Virus record (IMG/VR): IMGVR_UViG_3300009164_003041
Reading direction: 5' to 3' (one strand)
DNA: 20,000 nt
From: an uncultured virus (IMG/VR IMGVR_UViG_3300009164_003041)
Lineage: Duplodnaviria; Heunggongvirae; Uroviricota; Caudoviricetes
The first letter of the stretch is position 1. The number at the start of each line of letters is the position of its first letter. The notes under the pieces are model-generated. The model saw only the letters and a program-made list of their open reading frames with translations. It was not told where the DNA came from and made no database searches. This document shows, piece after piece, positions 3,602-13,949 of this stretch. Both the position numbers and the translations under genes were made by a program.

Positions 3602-4084
3602 ATGCGTAAAGAACTTGATGAATTGCTGTGTGTGAAGTACCCTAAGATTTTCAGGGACCGAAACGCACCCATGAATCAAACCTGCATGTGTTGGGGATTC
3701 GATTGTGGTGATGGATGGTTCAACATCATTGACATGCTTTGTGCTAACATTCAAGGTCACATTGACCGTGTTGAACGGCAGCGAGATTCCACTATCAAAT
3801 GGAATGAAAATGTGAATGATCCTAACTTTGAATGGATGTCATTTGTTAAACGAGAAGAACGACCTGTTCCGGAACTCGTTGATCAAGTTGTTGCTGTACA
3901 GGTAAAAGAAAAGTTTGGTACGTTGCGTTTCTACTATAACGGCGGCGACGATTTCATTAATGGGTTAGAGCGTATGGCAGAGTCGATGTCGGCTGTTACT
4001 TGTGAGGAATGCGGCAACCCGGGAACTATCACCAAAGGCGGCTGGATTCGTACTCTATGTGAAACTCATAAAAAGGAAAAATGA
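3602..4084 (+). CDS. Conserved hypothetical phage protein with C-terminal Zn-ribbon
   Basis: GAGG SD. GDGW…QVKEKFGTLRFY…CEECG…WIRTLCETH. Confidence 0.85.
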   Translation: MRKELDELLCVKYPKIFRDRNAPMNQTCMCWGFDCGDGWFNIIDMLCANIQGHIDRVERQRDSTIKWNENVNDPNFEWMSFVKREERPVPELVDQVVAVQVKEKFGTLRFYYNGGDDFINGLERMAESMSAVTCEECGNPGTITKGGWIRTLCETHKKEK

Positions 4085-4923
4085 TGAAAATTGCATTAGC
4101 AAGTGATCTACATTTGGAATTTCAGACTATCACGCTTCCCAACACTGAGGGAGCGAAGGTCCTGATTCTATCCGGTGACATCTGTGTAGCACACTCGCTA
4201 CATGATCATCCGATTGACAAGACTATTCCTGTCGATGCAATGAAGCCCGGTAGGAATGAGGGTGCTGCTATTCGGTTTCGTGAGTTCTTTCGTCATGTAA
4301 GTATGGAGTACGATCACGTAGTTTATGTGGCGGGTAACCATGAGTTCTATCATGGTCTCTTCCCTGATGTATATGACTGGTTGCGTACTGAAATGGTAAA
4401 CTACCCTAATATTCACTTTCTGAATCGTGAGAGTGTAGAGATTGAGGGCGTGACCTTTCTTGGTGGTACGCTTTGGACAGACATGCATCGTGCTGACCCA
4501 CTTACACTGCGAGTTATTGAGTCTGCGTTGAATGATTTTAGGATCATCCGAAACAGTCAGCATAACTATCGTCGTTTCCTTCCTATGGACACGGTCCTTG
4601 ATCACCGAGCAACCCTTGAGTATATCAAGCAAGTCGTTGATGCTGATCCTGCTAAGAAGTACGTTGTAGTTGGGCATCATGCCCCTACTGCACTGAGTGT
4701 TCACGAGAAGTATAAGGATGATCACTATGTGAACGGAGGCTACTACAGTGACTTGTCAGAATTCATTCTAGATCGTCCTCAGATCGCCCTCTGGACACAT
4801 GGACACATGCATGATCCTTCTGACTACATGATGGGAGAGACACGCATCGTGTGCAATCCTAGGGGCTATAAGGGGCATGACCCTCAGGCTGACCTCTTTC
4901 AATTAAAGTTTTTGGAGATTTGA
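4081..4923 (+). CDS. Calcineurin-like metallophosphoesterase
   Basis: Complete motif set: SDLH, GDI, GNHE, HH, HGHMH, NPRGY. Confidence 0.92.
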   Translation: MMKIALASDLHLEFQTITLPNTEGAKVLILSGDICVAHSLHDHPIDKTIPVDAMKPGRNEGAAIRFREFFRHVSMEYDHVVYVAGNHEFYHGLFPDVYDWLRTEMVNYPNIHFLNRESVEIEGVTFLGGTLWTDMHRADPLTLRVIESALNDFRIIRNSQHNYRRFLPMDTVLDHRATLEYIKQVVDADPAKKYVVVGHHAPTALSVHEKYKDDHYVNGGYYSDLSEFILDRPQIALWTHGHMHDPSDYMMGETRIVCNPRGYKGHDPQADLFQLKFLEI

Positions 4924-6438: not shown

Positions 6439-6765
6439 ATGACTCACGTAGTAACTGATAGCTGCATCAAATGTAAGTACACGGACTGCGTAACAGTATG
6501 TCCGGTTGACTGTTTTTACGAAGGACCAAACTTCCTAGTCATTAACCCTGACGAATGCATAGACTGCGGAGTCTGTATTCCCGAATGTCCGGTTAATGCA
6601 ATTGTGACGCATGATGATAAGAGCGTCGATAATATACAAGAGTGGATAGACATCAATCAACGATTGTCTAGACAATGGCCAAACATCACGCAATCAAAGA
6701 GTCCGTTGCCCGATGCTGAAAAATGGAAGAACGTTCCTAACAAGATTGACCTATTAGAGGATTGA
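6439..6765 (+). CDS. fdxA: 7Fe ([3Fe-4S]+[4Fe-4S]) ferredoxin, FdxA / Azotobacter FdI type
   Basis: [29 protein letters not shown]…[15 protein letters not shown] plus the WPNIT…PLPDAEKW C-terminal extension. Start moved to ATG 6439. Confidence 0.93.
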
Positions 6766-6768
6766 GAT

Positions 6769-6999
6769 ATGAAGATTTTTGATACATTTGAAGAAGTAGA
6801 GGGCATGGATCCTTGCATGAAGCGTCCTATGATCGTTCATGCTAAGAAGATGGATGAAGAGTTCCAGGTTAACACCCTTGAGGGGAACTATAAGCAGGGT
6901 AAGCCAGGTGATTATCTGATGCGAGGCATCGATGGAGAGCTATATATCTGTGACGGATCCATCTTTGAACGATCTTATGATATGGTTGTAGAATTATAA
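6769..6999 (+). CDS. PGDYG-like small phage protein
   Basis: TLEG…GKPGDYLMRGIDGELY…IFERSY. Confidence 0.75.
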   Translation: MKIFDTFEEVEGMDPCMKRPMIVHAKKMDEEFQVNTLEGNYKQGKPGDYLMRGIDGELYICDGSIFERSYDMVVEL

Positions 7000-7430
7000 T
7001 GAAGCCAAAGTTTATTGATTACTTCATGAAGTTTGCAGAGTTGACTAGCGCACTCAGCTATGCCAAACGTTTAAAGGTAGGTGCTGTTATTGTGAGAGGT
7101 GACAGTCAGATCATAGCAACCGGTTACAACGGCATGCCTAGTAGCTGGGACAACAATTGCGAACTTACTCTAGAAGACGGTTCGTTAAAGACTCGTCCAG
7201 AGGTACTCCACGCAGAATCGAATGCCCTAATGAAGGTGGCAAGATCAACTGAGTCAAGTGAGGGTGCAACTCTGTTTTGTACTCACGCACCTTGCATTGA
7301 TTGCGCCAAACTAATATATCAAGCCGGTGTTACTACTGTATACTACAAAGAGACTTACAGAGATGACAGTGGCTTGCGCTTTCTAAGTCAAGGAGGCATC
7401 AATGTCATTCAACACAGCGACCGCACATAA
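6999..7430 (+). CDS. dCMP deaminase (ComEB-like)
   Basis: VGAVIV, GYNG, HAE and PCxxC Zn-deaminase motifs. Confidence 0.93.
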   Translation: MKPKFIDYFMKFAELTSALSYAKRLKVGAVIVRGDSQIIATGYNGMPSSWDNNCELTLEDGSLKTRPEVLHAESNALMKVARSTESSEGATLFCTHAPCIDCAKLIYQAGVTTVYYKETYRDDSGLRFLSQGGINVIQHSDRT

Positions 7431-7590
7431 AACAGAAGTAAAATTTCCGTTTGGGGAACTTGATTCCATGATTGAGTGGTGTGAAAAGAACTGCCGCTCT
7501 GAATGGAAGTTTGGTGATAGCGACAACGGTTACACATTTTATTTTGATTCCGAAAAAGACTATTTTGCATTTATGATTTGGAAAGCATAA
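7402..7590 (+). CDS. Hypothetical protein
   Basis: GGAGG upstream. WCEKNC…W…YTFYFDSEKD pattern. TAATG coupling with the next gene. Confidence 0.7.
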   Translation: MSFNTATAHKTEVKFPFGELDSMIEWCEKNCRSEWKFGDSDNGYTFYFDSEKDYFAFMIWKA

Positions 7591-7850
7591 TGAAGTACTA
7601 CATATTTGCTAGGGAATCTGACAAGTTTGATGACATTCTTAAAGATATAGCGGTAAAGCCGGTTATCAGACATAAGATTAGATTCAAGAACCATTTGATC
7701 CTTGGCTTCTCTGACGATGATGAAAAGATCATATCATACATGACTATTAAGTATGGTGATGACCTGACCTCATTCAACCACATTGCGGCTGATCGAACTC
7801 CTATCATGAACAAAGATTATATTCCTAAAAAGAAATCGGTATCAGGTTAG
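7590..7850 (+). CDS. Hypothetical protein (MKYYIFARE…)
   Basis: ATG 7590 overlaps the previous TAA. The 3' end overlaps the convergent GT4 gene by 26 nt. Confidence 0.7.
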   Translation: MKYYIFARESDKFDDILKDIAVKPVIRHKIRFKNHLILGFSDDDEKIISYMTIKYGDDLTSFNHIAADRTPIMNKDYIPKKKSVSG

Positions 7851-8808
7851 ACTTGAATATTTCCCAGCAATGTTCCCATGTCCATTGCTTGCTATTCCTG
7901 ACTACTGCATTCCTGTCTAAGGTTAAACAGTAGTCAACTGCGGTAGATAGGTCGTCGGACATAAAACCCGTTACTCCCTGTTCAATTATATCTTTAGGTC
8001 CGGTAACCGGATATGCTGCTACAGGAGTTCCACACGCCATTGCTTCAATTATAACAATTCCAAAAGTATCACTGCGACTAGGAAATACAAAAACTTTAGA
8101 ATTTTTGTACCAGGTAGCTAGGTCTTCACCTACTTGTTTACCCGTAAAATGCACTGAGGGATATTTCTTTTTCAACTCGTCAAGATAGGGACCGTCTCCA
8201 ACTAGTACCTTAAAAGGATAATCTAGTTGACAGAATGCATCCAAATTCTTTTCTTTTGACACCCTAGACACACATAGAATATAGTCACCGATTTTGCGGT
8301 TGGGTTTGAACACGCTTCTATCTACGCCTCTTGTCCAGGAAATGATATCACCCCTGAATCCATGATCTTTGAGTTCATTAACCATCGTTTGTGTAGTAGT
8401 GAGTACACGACCGCTGTGTTTGTGAAACCATCTTAGATATGCATAGGTAATGAATTCCGGAACGTGATATATTTTCTTTAGGAATTCAGGGAATTTAGTA
8501 TGATAGCTAGTGTTGTATTTCCAGCCTTTGAAGTCTAACCAAACTCTTGCCGCTAATCCAATAGGACCTTCTGTAGCAATGTGTATGTGGTCAGGGGTTG
8601 CGGCTTTGATTTTAGACCCAATGTGGATCGGAAAAGACAACTTAACGTCAGGATACCCCGGTGCAGATGCATGAGTAAAATCGCTGGGATCAATATAAAC
8701 AACGTTATAACCATCCAAAGCAGCAAGCCGCTCAATATTTCTAAAAGTCGTAACAACCCCATTGATCTGTGTTCTTAGATTATCGGTTACTATTAGTATG
8801 GTTTTCAT
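7825..8808 (-). CDS. agt: GT4 glycosyltransferase, Agt-like (DAG glucosyl/glucuronosyl-transferase)
   Basis: ILIVTD…QINGVV, HIATEGPIGLAAR, SYHTKFPE, YLRWFH, WTRGVD, RVSKEKN, DTFGIVIIEAMACGTPVAAYPVTGP. Start moved to MKTILIV (8808). The GT4 call is firm. The Agt subfamily call rests on motif recall and synteny. Confidence 0.8.
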   Translation of the reverse strand: MKTILIVTDNLRTQINGVVTTFRNIERLAALDGYNVVYIDPSDFTHASAPGYPDVKLSFPIHIGSKIKAATPDHIHIATEGPIGLAARVWLDFKGWKYNTSYHTKFPEFLKKIYHVPEFITYAYLRWFHKHSGRVLTTTQTMVNELKDHGFRGDIISWTRGVDRSVFKPNRKIGDYILCVSRVSKEKNLDAFCQLDYPFKVLVGDGPYLDELKKKYPSVHFTGKQVGEDLATWYKNSKVFVFPSRSDTFGIVIIEAMACGTPVAAYPVTGPKDIIEQGVTGFMSDDLSTAVDYCLTLDRNAVVRNSKQWTWEHCWEIFKSNLIPISF

Positions 8809-9559
8809 CGGTATTGATCTTTTGCCAAACGACGATTTCCCATCGCCCATCATGATGTTCTACCAGTGCGGTACATGATTCTACCCAATCACCGTCATTC
8901 ATGTACACAATATCATTGACTGTCTTAATCTCTGCATTATGAATATGCCCGCAGATTACACCGTCATATCCTTTTCGTTTAGCGTATGCTGTAATATTTT
9001 TTTCAAATTCAAACATGAAGTCGATAGCTTTTTTAACTTTATGCTTAAGGAACTTAGACAATGACCAATAGCCAAATCCCATTCTATGTCTGATCCAGTT
9101 GAATCTGCTGTTGAGGTCCAGCACGAAATCATATGCTCGGTCACCTAAAAAACTGAGCCAAGGAGTAAGACGAGTAATTCCATCAAACAAATCGCCATGT
9201 ACTACCATGTATTTCTTGCCGTCTACGCCCAAGTGAGTTATAGTATTGCAGATTTCAACTCTACCAAAATTGGCAGCGTATGGTATCATCGGTCTTAAGA
9301 ATTCATCGTGGTTTCCTGCAACATACACGACTCTAGTATTGTGTTTGCTGTGACTAAGAATACGACGAACCACATTAGTATGTGACTGCTTCCACTTCAT
9401 CCGATTCTGTTGAATCTTCCATGCATCGATGATGTCACCTACAAGATACAGAGTCTCACAGGTATTATGTTTTAGGAAATTGTTAAGCAGGTCTGCTTTG
9501 CAGTCTTTAGCGCCCAAATGGACATCTGATATGAAGATAGTTCTGTATGTGGGTTTCAT
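8780..9559 (-). CDS. plcP: PlcP-like Mn-dependent phospholipase C (LpxH/UDP-2,3-diacylglucosamine hydrolase family metallophosphoesterase)
   Basis: YRTIFISDVHLG, LVGDIID, GNHDEFLR, HGDLFD, LGDRAYD, GYWSLS, GVICGHIH, YMNDGDWVESCTALVE match the PlcP pattern. GNHD rather than the LpxH GNRD. Overlaps the GT4 gene by 29 nt. Confidence 0.82.
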   Translation of the reverse strand: MKPTYRTIFISDVHLGAKDCKADLLNNFLKHNTCETLYLVGDIIDAWKIQQNRMKWKQSHTNVVRRILSHSKHNTRVVYVAGNHDEFLRPMIPYAANFGRVEICNTITHLGVDGKKYMVVHGDLFDGITRLTPWLSFLGDRAYDFVLDLNSRFNWIRHRMGFGYWSLSKFLKHKVKKAIDFMFEFEKNITAYAKRKGYDGVICGHIHNAEIKTVNDIVYMNDGDWVESCTALVEHHDGRWEIVVWQKINTDENHTNSNR

Positions 9560-9564
9560 GCAAT

Positions 9565-9572
9565 TATTTATC
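9565..9572 (-). promoter_or_regulatory. Putative late promoter GATAAATA (minus strand), leaderless
   Basis: TATTTATC on the + strand, 5 nt from the plcP ATG, with no SD. Confidence 0.6.
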
Positions 9573-9602
9573 AGATTTGTATTGACTTTCTTCGAAATGT
9601 AT

Positions 9603-9610
9603 GCTAAATA
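9603..9610 (+). promoter_or_regulatory. Putative late promoter GCTAAATA, near-leaderless
   Basis: 6 nt before ATG 9617, with no SD. Back-to-back with the minus-strand motif. Confidence 0.55.
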
Positions 9611-9616
9611 TGTAGT

Positions 9617-10186
9617 ATGAAGATAAAAGAACTACTAGAATCTGCCGAACCCACAGGCAGCAGTCCCATTGTCTATGTTGACATGGATGGTGTGTTGGCC
9701 GATCTCTACAATTATGCTGCGACTTTGCATGACGTAGATCACTATAACAACATGACTCCTGCACAGTGGGAGTCGTTCTTCAAAGATTCAAATGCATATC
9801 ACTTGTTTCGTGATATCAAACCATTTCCAACTGCAAATAAACTACTAAACATGGTCAAGAATTTTGCAGGCGGGTATACTATTTTGAGCAGCCCGTTGAG
9901 CTTCGATAAAGAAGGTAGCATCAAGGGTAAGCGGGAATGGTTGGCGAAGCATATCAAAGTTGCTCCCGATCAAGTTACCTTTGAACATGACAAATACAAG
10001 TATGCAGTACAACCTGACGGCACCCCCAACATTCTAATTGATGATTATGGCGTTAACATTAACGCTTGGAGGGCAGCAGGCGGTTTAGCTATCAAATATC
10101 AAGCTGATGAAGACGATTTGGAAAAAGTTGCGTACGGACTCCGAATTGCTAACAACCGCATCAATCAAGCTAAAAAAGATAAATAA
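9617..10186 (+). CDS. HAD-superfamily 5'(3')-nucleotidase-like phosphatase
   Basis: VYVDMDGVLAD (motif I), ILSSP (II), K (III), NILIDD (IV). N-terminal extension MKIKELLES. Confidence 0.88.
   Translation: MKIKELLESAEPTGSSPIVYVDMDGVLADLYNYAATLHDVDHYNNMTPAQWESFFKDSNAYHLFRDIKPFPTANKLLNMVKNFAGGYTILSSPLSFDKEGSIKGKREWLAKHIKVAPDQVTFEHDKYKYAVQPDGTPNILIDDYGVNINAWRAAGGLAIKYQADEDDLEKVAYGLRIANNRINQAKKDK
10178..10185 (+). promoter_or_regulatory. Putative late promoter GATAAATA
   Basis: Overlaps the HAD gene stop. 23 nt before ATG 10209, with a GGAG SD in between. Confidence 0.55.
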
Positions 10187-12470: not shown

Positions 12471-12686
12471 ATGGCTAAAGAAAGTACAATCAAAATAGAA
12501 GGAGATGTGATTGACGTATTACCAAACGCAACATTCAAAGTCAAGCTTGACAATGGAATGGTTGTGTTGAGTTACGTATCAGGAAAAATGCGGCAGCATG
12601 AGATTCGCATTTTGATGGGCGATAAAGTTGAAATTGAAGTAAGCCCATATGACTTATCAAGAGGCAGAATAGTTCGACGTAAGTAG
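12471..12686 (+). CDS. infA: Translation initiation factor IF-1
   Basis: MAKE…IEGxV…[13 protein letters not shown]…SGKMR…[23 protein letters not shown], full-length 71 aa. Confidence 0.96.
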
Positions 12687-12696
12687 TCACTTTTGT

Positions 12697-12704
12697 GATA
12701 AATA
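12697..12704 (+). promoter_or_regulatory. Putative late promoter GATAAATA, leaderless
   Basis: 5 nt before ATG 12710, with no SD. Confidence 0.6.
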
Positions 12705-12709
12705 GTCTC

Positions 12710-13264
12710 ATGAGAGAATTTATCACGCTTCTTGAGGAAAAATCAAAACCCCAAGACATAGAAATCATCCCCCTTAACTTCACTGAGAGTGAGGTTTCTC
12801 CCGTTATGGGTGAAGACACCTTAGAATTACACTATAACAAATTAGCTAAGGGGTATGCACAACGCTACAATGACAAAGAAGGTGATCCTGAGTTTAACTA
12901 CGCAGGAGCGTTCTTACATAATACTTGGTTTCCTCAGTTCAGAGAAGTGAGAAACAACAACAAACCTAACGGCCCTATGCTCGGCTTCATCAACAAACAT
13001 TTTGGAAGCTACGATAAATTCAAAGATGATTTTGAAGAAGAAGCAATGAAGATTCAAGGATCAGGCTGGGCGTATCTAGCATACGATGGAAAGATCAAAA
13101 CAATCAAGAATCACGAAGTCCGAGATGACATTCTGTTGCTCGTAGACTGGTGGGAACACGCCTGGATTCTAGATTACGGTTCAGATAAGAAGAAGTATCT
13201 AAAAGAACTTTGGAAGATCATCAACTGGAACGTAGTGAATACTCGCTGGGGTAAAAGTCTATGA
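12710..13264 (+). CDS. sod: Fe/Mn superoxide dismutase family protein
   Basis: TLELHY, AFLHNTWF, FGSYDKFK, GSGWAYL, DWWEHAW. The four metal ligands (H, H, D, H) are present. Start moved to ATG 12710. Confidence 0.88.
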   Translation: MREFITLLEEKSKPQDIEIIPLNFTESEVSPVMGEDTLELHYNKLAKGYAQRYNDKEGDPEFNYAGAFLHNTWFPQFREVRNNNKPNGPMLGFINKHFGSYDKFKDDFEEEAMKIQGSGWAYLAYDGKIKTIKNHEVRDDILLLVDWWEHAWILDYGSDKKKYLKELWKIINWNVVNTRWGKSL

Positions 13265-13443
13265 ACTTAGATGAACTCAAGCGCCTAGCTGGTGTTACTG
13301 ATCACCGAGGTATTCCTACACACAGCGAACCACTTGATCGTAGCAAGATTACTGCAAGGCCCGGCACAGATGAATGGTTTAAAGCCATGTTCCCCGTGAA
13401 CGATATGCAGATGCCAGTTGGATTCAGAGGCCGCAAGAAATGA
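13261..13443 (+). CDS. Small hypothetical protein (MNLDELKRLAG…PGTDEWFKAMF)
   Basis: ATGA overlaps at both ends. Confidence 0.75.
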   Translation: MNLDELKRLAGVTDHRGIPTHSEPLDRSKITARPGTDEWFKAMFPVNDMQMPVGFRGRKK

Positions 13444-13949
13444 AACCATTATGGGAAGCAACACGAGATTTGCACCACGCATGTGAAGCGCATCCAGTCG
13501 GAGCAGCAATGTCTTCTGGAAAGCCACCTATGATTTGGTATGCAGCGTGGATTAAAGCATTATTACAAATACATTCATTTATTGACCCGCATGCTCCTAA
13601 ATCTATACAACGCACTGAAAGATTGATACAGGATGTTAATAGCGCCGGAGACGTTGCTGAGTCAGTTGCTGCAAACGACTACATAAGAACACTAGATAAC
13701 GCTAACGCTCTCTCAGGGGCTTTATACGTGCTTACAGGGGCACATCTAATGGGCGGAGAGATAATGAGACGCCGCCTTGTGGGGTATCCTACCTTACATT
13801 TGGAGTGGGACGAGCGTAAAGATGCACTAGCTGAATTACAAATTCTAAGAACAAGGGGTGAGTTAGGACAAGAAGCAAGAGATTGTTTTGCTGCATTGCT
13901 TTCGGTAATGGATGAAATACAAATTAAGTATCCATTGGATGCCGAATAA
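13440..13949 (+). CDS. Heme oxygenase-like protein
   Basis: Proximal helix LWEATRDLH, distal helix GALYVLTGAHLMGG, C-terminal EARDCF. Confidence 0.72.
   Translation: MKPLWEATRDLHHACEAHPVGAAMSSGKPPMIWYAAWIKALLQIHSFIDPHAPKSIQRTERLIQDVNSAGDVAESVAANDYIRTLDNANALSGALYVLTGAHLMGGEIMRRRLVGYPTLHLEWDERKDALAELQILRTRGELGQEARDCFAALLSVMDEIQIKYPLDAE

Follow-up and report, generated by a model that had tools for sequence, protein, structure and literature searches.

Two overlapping genes on the minus strand of a phage genome fragment raise the question of why a virus should carry what resembles a membrane lipid-remodelling operon of bacteria. The fragment, a stretch of 20,000 nucleotides here called the window, belongs to the uncultured Caudoviricetes record IMGVR_UViG_3300009164_003041 of IMG/VR; the whole virus record (labelled G000) has 42,576 bases and is estimated to be 12% complete, which corresponds to a phage of about 350 kb. 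In bacteria, PlcP takes off the phospho-head group of membrane lipids and the glycosyltransferase (GT) Agt glycosylates the resulting diacylglycerol (DAG) to monoglucosyl-DAG (MGDG) or glucuronosyl-DAG (GADG) (PMC4796936, PMC8528852, PMC9239053). As judged by sequence, the two window genes are of PlcP and Agt1 type by descent, and resident in phages. We lean towards the view that they would form a functional viral PlcP-Agt lipid swap, freeing membrane phosphorus late in infection, with phosphorus supply as its main purpose.

The first gene, plcP (8780..9559, minus strand), encodes P0001, a calcineurin-like dimetal phosphoesterase of 259 aa, assigned to the plcP-type phospholipases C by Pfam, identity, tree position and conserved columns. 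An earlier note, made from the letters of this DNA, had read the pair as a GNHD-type metallophosphoesterase and a GT4 enzyme: the motif DxH..GD..GNHD..H..GHxH and the Pfam domains are indeed present, and the metal-ligand residues D12, H14, D42, N83, H84, H121, H205 and H207 are all in place. P0001 is 52.7% identical to the P. aeruginosa PA3219 orthologue and 46.3% to the S. meliloti orthologue, while the figure for E. coli LpxH is 23% over 125 aa. A set of 59 bacterial homologues defines 69 conserved columns, of which P0001 retains 67, and the aromatic helical insertion is preserved with them; in a FastTree phylogeny of 129 rows, where 59 of 137 phage clusters were sampled, it falls within the PlcP radiation, with LpxH far off on a long branch. 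The reference proteins come from chromosome pieces in plasmid-collection records, L260 and L308 for P. aeruginosa and L261 for S. meliloti. In L260 a phosphoesterase-GT pair lies between azoR3/csaA and cyaB, in L308 a GT lies beside plcH-plcR; by neighbourhood we take the L260 pair to be PA3219/PA3218, the L308 GT to be PA0842 and the L261 gene to be SMc00171. Besides gene neighbourhood, the assignment to PA3219 and SMc00171 was made because the two reference PlcPs are 46.6% identical, in agreement with the 46% given in PMC8528852.

A true LpxH, accompanied by a GT4 that modifies lipopolysaccharide (LPS), DNA or virions, would be the reading suggested by the databases, which label relatives of PlcP 'LpxH', and by structure: the AlphaFold model of P0001 (pLDDT 85) combines an LpxH-like phosphoesterase core with a helical insertion (about 120-195) that is modelled with less certainty, and its nearest solved structures are LpxH. 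Those matches, however, have 15-20% identity and TM about 0.5; a phmmer search of P0001 against PDB gave no match, profile and fold searches reaching only LpxH. The PA3219 orthologue bears the same wrong label, and automated annotation does mislabel this phosphoesterase, as the earlier note had foreseen. LpxH models score P0001 at 52.8 and 39.2 bits, against cut-offs of 134 and 190.35. Both LpxHs compared, 19-23% identical to P0001, have GNRD where P0001 has GNHD, and GNHD is present throughout the 130 viral and 80 metagenome loci; histidine versus arginine in GNxD is diagnostic for PlcP versus LpxH.

The second gene (7825..8808, minus strand) encodes P0002, an Agt1-type GT4 DAG glycosyltransferase of 327 aa counted from the ATG at 8808, assigned by Pfam GT4 domains, identity and tree. 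Its frame is open from 8853; with 8808 as the likely start, plcP and the GT gene overlap by 29 nt. P0002 is 40.6% identical to the PA3218/Agt1 orthologue and 29.4% to the PA0842/Agt2 orthologue, keeps 69 of the 83 columns conserved in bacterial homologues, and belongs to an almost all-phage clade of 91 rows nested among plcP-linked bacterial GT4s with Agt1. A single clade of 134 rows holds both P0002 and Agt1, Agt2 and two PAP2-linked GTs lying outside. Its scores are far below all named GT4 cut-offs, and plcP-linked GT4s are closest to it, which argues against an enzyme acting on LPS, DNA or virions. The place directly after plcP and within the Agt1 clade favours an Agt-type enzyme over other GT4s; the product, MGDG or GADG, is not callable from the P0002 sequence. 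We are therefore highly confident of the predicted enzyme identities, PlcP-type for P0001 and Agt-type for P0002, and regard a true LpxH with another kind of GT4 as very improbable.

The pair is set on the minus strand within a run of plus-strand genes. All remaining minus-strand open reading frames (ORFs) of at least 60 aa in the window overlap plus-strand genes; the earlier note had named the two as the only genes on this strand. To their left lies an 86-aa hypothetical gene without family match (7590..7850, plus strand), whose 3' end overlaps that of the GT4 gene by 26 nt, with a dCMP deaminase and small hypothetical genes beyond; to their right, after 57 bp, the 5'(3')-deoxyribonucleotidase gene NT5C diverges (9617..10186, plus strand; PF06941, phrog_2643, synteny). 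No terminator was found, nor any Rfam family in the cassette region (L178). A pair on the opposite strand, absent from most close relatives, could be an assembly chimera with host DNA, or neutral cargo in decay. Against this, a second IMG/VR contig (L119), possibly from the same water body, matches the window at 99.99% over 7,961 nt, spanning both junctions with one difference (8621); L324 carries the two genes in the same place between the same two flanks, and L016, 77% identical across the pair and the left flank, has the same site with its left flank. GC content, also at third codon positions (GC3), equals that of neighbouring genes, and comparison with L324, L016 and L046 indicates purifying selection (dN 0.08-0.12 for plcP and 0.16-0.25 for GT; dS 0.94 or saturated). 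Given the second assembly and the syntenic relatives, a host-derived segment, which the earlier note had named as one outcome fatal to its idea, is the least probable explanation of all, as is decay. Window bases 8621 and 18979 differ from the stored genome record, the GT frame remaining open; one match was given as 100%.

Among the matches listed, the closest homologues are of phage origin, at 66-86%; bacterial ones do not exceed 56%, except for three contigs of metagenome-assembled genomes (MAGs). These three, L081, L082 and L318, 'bacterial' by label and 67-76% identical, were considered as donors and rejected: they nest among phage sequences, and we regarded them as phage contigs that had probably been binned with MAGs. 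The tree, weakly supported at its deep nodes, points to no donor lineage. Since the window, L016, L003 and L182 group together in both the PlcP and the GT trees, the two genes appear to be inherited together. In one lake metatranscriptome (share 0.08), 2 of 8 RNA contigs fall on plcP and none of the 8 on the GT gene, at an unstranded depth of 2-6 with DNA carry-over possible, and no expression is claimed.

Relatives of plcP are numerous: scans gave at least 594 in IMG/VR and at least 541 in metagenomes, 80 of each being kept. These made up 104 clusters at 95% identity, 30 of which were left out, their flanks being too short; among the matches listed, a GT gene occurs up to 1.5 kb downstream of plcP in 47 of the 74 clusters with a 2.5 kb flank and is missing in 27. 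A higher linkage count (89 linked) was set aside, since loci recovered through the GT search itself had biased it. In the synteny survey proposed earlier, the plcP-agt pair is common in uncultured aquatic phages, but not obligatory, as shown by those 27 clusters and by L046, with plcP alone. Within 4 kb of plcP, 137 phage loci feature BPL_N (32), GT2 (25), fatty-acid desaturase (16), pstS (13), RimK (13) and UDP-glucose dehydrogenase (10). Five records of GenBank phages match, including Pelagibacter phage Mosig (46%) and Synechococcus phage S-SRM01. Mosig (L117, 94129-94866) is a cultured carrier: its plcP, labelled UDP-2,3-diacylglucosamine hydrolase, has TAAATA 5 nt before the ATG, is divergent from a phosphate ABC transporter gene and lacks a GT. 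Two further observations concern the DNA ahead of phage plcP genes: a permuted tmRNA of betaproteobacterial type (L057:2004-2316; RF01850, RF04321), about 500 nt upstream, and, ahead of several other phage plcP genes, a motif containing CTCGTAACC followed by a terminator-like hairpin, with no Rfam match in L501 and L502. The PlcP-Agt pathway itself is known from bacteria. Among open-licence papers, and leaving aside supplements with tables of auxiliary metabolic genes, no report of a phage-encoded plcP-agt was found, and it goes unmentioned in the accessible text of PMC7892664 (the Mosig announcement), PMC9004378, PMC12619734, PMC11360552 and PMC7824862.

How would such a pair be expressed? 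A T4-type late promoter core, GATAAATA (9565..9572, minus strand; assigned by motif position and relatives), lies 5 nt upstream of the plcP ATG, at 9572-9565, just where the earlier note had placed it. Within the window, the word ATAAATA occurs at chance level (5 found, 4.9 expected). By position, 10 of the 14 sites in the 42.6-kb contig stand at the start of an ORF on the same strand, for an expectation of 8.9% (p 2e-8); the same holds for 71 of 126 sites in G206, a complete relative of 360,683 bp, and 27 of 41 in G208, another relative, with 6-9% expected. The control word ATATTTA is found at ORF starts in 1 of 12 and 13 of 92 cases; TATTTAT (4/14) and AATAAAT (4/7) are raised, owing to overlap with the motif or to back-to-back promoters. 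Scanning 43 of the 71 ATAAATA-led genes of G206, small genes and apparent homing endonucleases being left out, recovered 11 virion genes, 2 with endolysin domains, 10 with other functions, 3 of unknown families and 17 without match. A gp55-like sigma factor (phrog_234) is encoded by both near-complete close relatives (2 of 5 records) and by 4 of 5 more distant records. The position of the motif at gene starts, the virion genes behind it in a relative and the gp55-type sigma in some relatives support a late-type promoter, and we consider it probable that the plcP-agt promoter is of the late class. T4 late-promoter geometry would put the start of transcription at the plcP ATG, and no Shine-Dalgarno sequence precedes this ATG; the plcP mRNA is therefore probably leaderless.

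The bacterial counterpart would be expected under phosphate control, for which the earlier note had seen no convincing Pho box. None was found in front of the window plcP, where the best in-phase score is 7/14 and the position weight matrix score lies within the control range, the level of control sites, nor anywhere up to 3 kb upstream of plcP. A Pho-like direct repeat was defined by a score of at least 12/14, ending 10-12 or 20-23 nt upstream of TAAATA; the consensus, from PMC8528852, was relaxed after the relatives had been seen, which somewhat flatters the following count, although controls were run under the same rule. Upstream DNA was available for 134 phage clusters. TAAATA precedes the start by 2-12 nt in 83 of them, and in 68 of the 83 it is accompanied by an in-phase Pho box, as opposed to 9 of 288 control TAAATA sites. 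The divergent NT5C promoter (TTGACT, 17 nt, TGC-TAAATA; 9582..9610, plus strand), sigma70-like and conserved in syntenic relatives, sits where relatives have the Pho box; a consensus scanner missed it, position 6 of its -10 not being T. A half-site, AAGTCAA, was discarded as a Pho half-site, being the reverse complement of the -35 TTGACT (9582-9587) of that promoter.

An operon still controlled by phosphate, through a non-consensus PhoB site or a phage factor, has a precedent, PhoB having bound an S-PM2d promoter without a predicted box (PMC10976474), and the PhoB motif of the host, whichever it is, may differ from the consensus used. The room for such a site is limited, though: the 57 bp between plcP and the divergent gene are occupied by the conserved sigma70-like promoter, scores are at control level, and the same architecture is found in relatives whose cargo is a lysozyme. 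We judge phosphate control of this copy improbable.

In a quick IQ-TREE phylogeny built from 121 phage clusters, the PlcP of the window falls in a subclade of 14 clusters nested among Pho-boxed sequences (SH-aLRT 92; FastTree 0.965). With 3 kb upstream checked, no Pho box occurs in 11 subclade clusters, compared with 75 of 99 others, 3 and 8 clusters respectively being too short. The subclade is marked by only five, mostly conservative, substitutions. Outside it, 24 of the 99 clusters also lack the box, which switches between presence and absence at least 23 times across the tree, clusters not being independent; loss is thus recurrent among phage plcP copies. The backbone of the tree is too poorly supported to establish which Pho-box state is ancestral. 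Because the window gene is nested in a Pho-boxed phage clade and sits, as described below, in a slot with resident cargo, the box was probably lost inside phages, by loss or relocation, and not at capture. Here the data depart from the earlier note, according to which a complete pair was taken up by the phage and then rewired: phage copies usually combine a Pho box with TAAATA (68/83), and the loss most likely came later, within phages. In more distantly related members of the group plcP is found at other genomic positions, with perfect Pho boxes (L500, L501) or behind pstS (L502, L503); outside the subclade, pstS lies within 4 kb of plcP in 13 of 107 clusters.

Five members of the Pho-less subclade (L004, L005, L008, L009, L011) have plcP between nrdA and nrdB of other phages. 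In these the gene is found in a thyX-nrdA-nrdB run and overlaps the nrdA stop codon; a GT, divergent and 47% identical to P0002, is sometimes present. Ribonucleotide reductase in these five members, together with NT5C and dCMP deaminase in the window, might indicate that the phosphoesterase now acts on another substrate (nucleotides, sugar-nucleotides or the cyclic nucleotides of immune signalling), with a role in nucleotide metabolism or counter-defence; for jumbo phages, phosphodiesterases of the calcineurin-like type have been predicted to destroy signal nucleotides (PMC7824862). A protein that keeps practically every PlcP-conserved column, the aromatic helical insertion included, and whose GT is inherited with it does not look like one that has taken up another substrate, and we give this explanation little credit.

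The site was examined by searching with its flanking genes. Of the 125 loci recovered, 68 include both flanks, and 27 of these are distinct; the 17 with NT5C at least 63% identical were used, 10 with NT5C at most 38% identical being left out. Between the 86-aa gene on the left and NT5C on the right, the two fixed flanks, 7 of the 17 slots are empty, 4 hold DUF4337, 3 a peptidase M15 with a GH19 lysozyme, 2 plcP-agt (window and L324) and 1 plcP alone (L046); slot families were found by search in L321, L322, L325, L327 and L332 and assigned by likeness in the others. In each of the 10 filled slots the cargo strand bears TAAATA, and no Pho-type score exceeds 11. TAAATA lies 10-13 nt from the divergent NT5C -35 in the window, L322, L327, L325, L328 and L332; since this spacing is kept across cargos, the promoter in the window is a property of the site rather than of its cargo. 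The slot is an exchangeable late-promoter site with resident cargo. Among its contents, a DUF4337 membrane protein is the commonest tenant (L321, L325, L328, L332, L449; G206), also found near plcP in 5 other phage loci, while the slot of L322 (3195-4921) holds a peptidase M15, a small lipoprotein-like ORF, a two-helix membrane ORF and a GH19 lysozyme, and looks like a complete lysis cassette. G206 (L370:18014-19237) has a UDP-glucose dehydrogenase under an ATAAATA promoter, although plcP is absent.

Such tenants bring up another use of the same chemistry, a late envelope-remodelling module that tunes lysis, blocks superinfection or membrane defences, or lowers grazing, the loss of Pho control marking a change of role. 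In this view DAG from PlcP and the glycolipids would alter the charge and packing of the membrane and the display of its proteins. Besides the M15-GH19 and DUF4337 genes under the same promoter position, the occurrence of plcP without GT in the slot of L046 and a lineage in which neither pstS nor Pho boxes were found would suit it, as would reports that lipid remodelling affects the membrane proteins of P. aeruginosa and how phages adsorb to it (PMC9804370), and how a ciliate ingests Phaeobacter (PMC9457565). A common slot, on the other hand, indicates only a common promoter; other Pho-less members sit in the nrdA-nrdB operon, and five mostly conservative substitutions set the subclade apart. 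GH19 genes are present elsewhere in G206 and in the plcP-agt-bearing G208, so that plcP-agt does not replace a lysin. We rate this role as possible but doubtful. Equally tentative is a wider formulation, in which a host pathway of phosphate-starvation lipids, freed from phosphate sensing, would have become programmed late membrane rewriting in one aquatic jumbo-phage branch, exchangeable at a single locus with lysis and membrane genes and turning the host bilayer into glycolipid at every infection, serving control of lysis, superinfection or immunity along with phosphorus.

For the lipid swap that we favour, we infer biochemical steps, timing and purpose as follows. A gp55-type sigma would transcribe plcP-agt from TAAATA as a leaderless, translationally coupled bicistron. 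A cytoplasmic, Mn-type PlcP would cleave phospho-head groups from inner-membrane phospholipids, leaving DAG, to which the GT4 would transfer glucose from a UDP-sugar (as its nearness to Agt1 suggests; glucuronate is possible), the glycolipid keeping the bilayer closed until lysis. Host phosphatases would release phosphate from the head groups for replication and packaging of the genome of about 350 kb. Expression would come late in infection, probably independent of the phosphate status of the host. As to history, an old phage plcP-agt clade with Pho box and TAAATA may have given rise to this subclade, which would have lost the box as its genes were relocated to constitutive phage transcription units, the late slot here or nrdA-nrdB elsewhere. 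With an assumed cell geometry, the phosphorus of the membrane lipids would suffice for roughly 4 genomes of 360 kb in a small cell and 19 in one of E. coli size: the gain is modest, and most important for small hosts.

Several observations weigh against this reading. Neither G206 nor G207, the two near-complete relatives, has plcP, and the pair is therefore accessory; its slot-mates are envelope or lysis genes. pstS is found in none of the 5 records of the lineage, and in-phase Pho boxes at none of the TAAATA sites of G000 (0/19), G206 (0/214) and G208 (0/64); phosphorus may therefore not be the selecting force for genes in this lineage. Predicted Pho boxes were themselves unreliable in S-PM2d (PMC10976474). 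Timing is affected by the 10 of 43 ATAAATA-led genes of G206 that code for non-structural enzymes or chaperones, so that the motif marks a class and not a time point, and by gp55, which was not found on G000 itself, a 12% complete contig. Finally, 14 of the 83 bacterial-conserved GT columns are changed, mostly in common with other phage GTs, and acceptor or donor may therefore have shifted.

Neighbouring genes give few clues to the host. The best plasmid-collection matches of the window ferredoxin are betaproteobacterial (67%), a comparison of IF1 carries no information, and the divergent -10 without its last T presumably resembles alphaproteobacterial promoters. At 12471-13949 the window has IF-1, an Fe/Mn superoxide dismutase, with a phage-type N-terminus and 80-92% identical in many relatives, and a 169-aa ORF without Pfam match, which we take to resemble haem oxygenase. 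A second, unrelated metallophosphoesterase (phrog_1649), the 7Fe ferredoxin FdxA, a PGDYG protein and the dCMP deaminase are found at 4081-4923 and 6439-7430. Judged by sequence likeness, the ORFs of G000 that lie 1.5-7 kb upstream of the window include a ClpX, an Hsp20, a ClpS and two proteins resembling ClpP, with Hsp20 and ClpS confirmed only in the relative G206.

If the enzymes work, phages would draw phosphorus from the host membrane and change its lipid class, by a route hidden under the LpxH label. In marine viromes, 'lpxH' is reported among the common LPS-biosynthesis genes (PMC10653327), which may or may not be plcP. PMC9239053 has proposed that plcP transcripts can indicate phosphorus limitation in bacteria; such use would then be affected, as would the reading of where plankton glycolipids originate. 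Nature here provides its own experiment, since the genes occur with or without a Pho box and with or without a GT, and close relatives have the slot empty or differently filled.

Among known systems, LpxH shares with P0001 the calcineurin-like fold and the helical insertion, and is the nearest solved structure; P0001 differs from it by low identity, the histidine in place of the arginine of GNxD, scores far below the LpxH model cut-offs and a long branch between them on the tree. The gp55 late promoters of T4 and S-PM2 (TATAAATA and NATAAATA, the latter being the S-PM2 late promoter; PMC2984593) are alike in core motif, in the gp55-like sigma, here found in some relatives, and in the virion genes downstream; in contrast, gp55 is absent from this partial contig, and the late class is assigned by association.

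Cyanophage genes under PhoB control (P-SSM2 pstS; S-PM2d; PMC10976474) are, like the window pair, auxiliary genes for phosphorus during infection; they import phosphate or boost replication under the host PhoBR, whereas the window pair would use membrane lipid, and has no box. Other aquatic-phage cassettes with plcP, alone or with agt, share 66-86% PlcP identity, TAAATA 4-6 nt before the ATG and the same GT clade. In most of them a Pho box precedes TAAATA by 11 or 22 nt, and pstS, a desaturase, GT2 or UDP-glucose dehydrogenase is often present as well; none of these accompanies the window pair. The characterised bacterial operons, P. aeruginosa PA3219-PA3218/Agt1 (PMC8528852), SAR11 HTCC7211 and Phaeobacter MED193 (PMC4796936) and Methylosinus OB3b (PMC9239053), have the same order of plcP and GT4, with overlapping ORFs, the metal ligands and GNHD; the 53% and 41% identity of the window proteins to the P. 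aeruginosa orthologues falls inside the span of 41-51% reported there for comparisons among characterised members. The window pair differs from them in being viral, in having a T4-type late promoter and no Pho box, in its phage-dominated clades and in the 14 changes of its GT.

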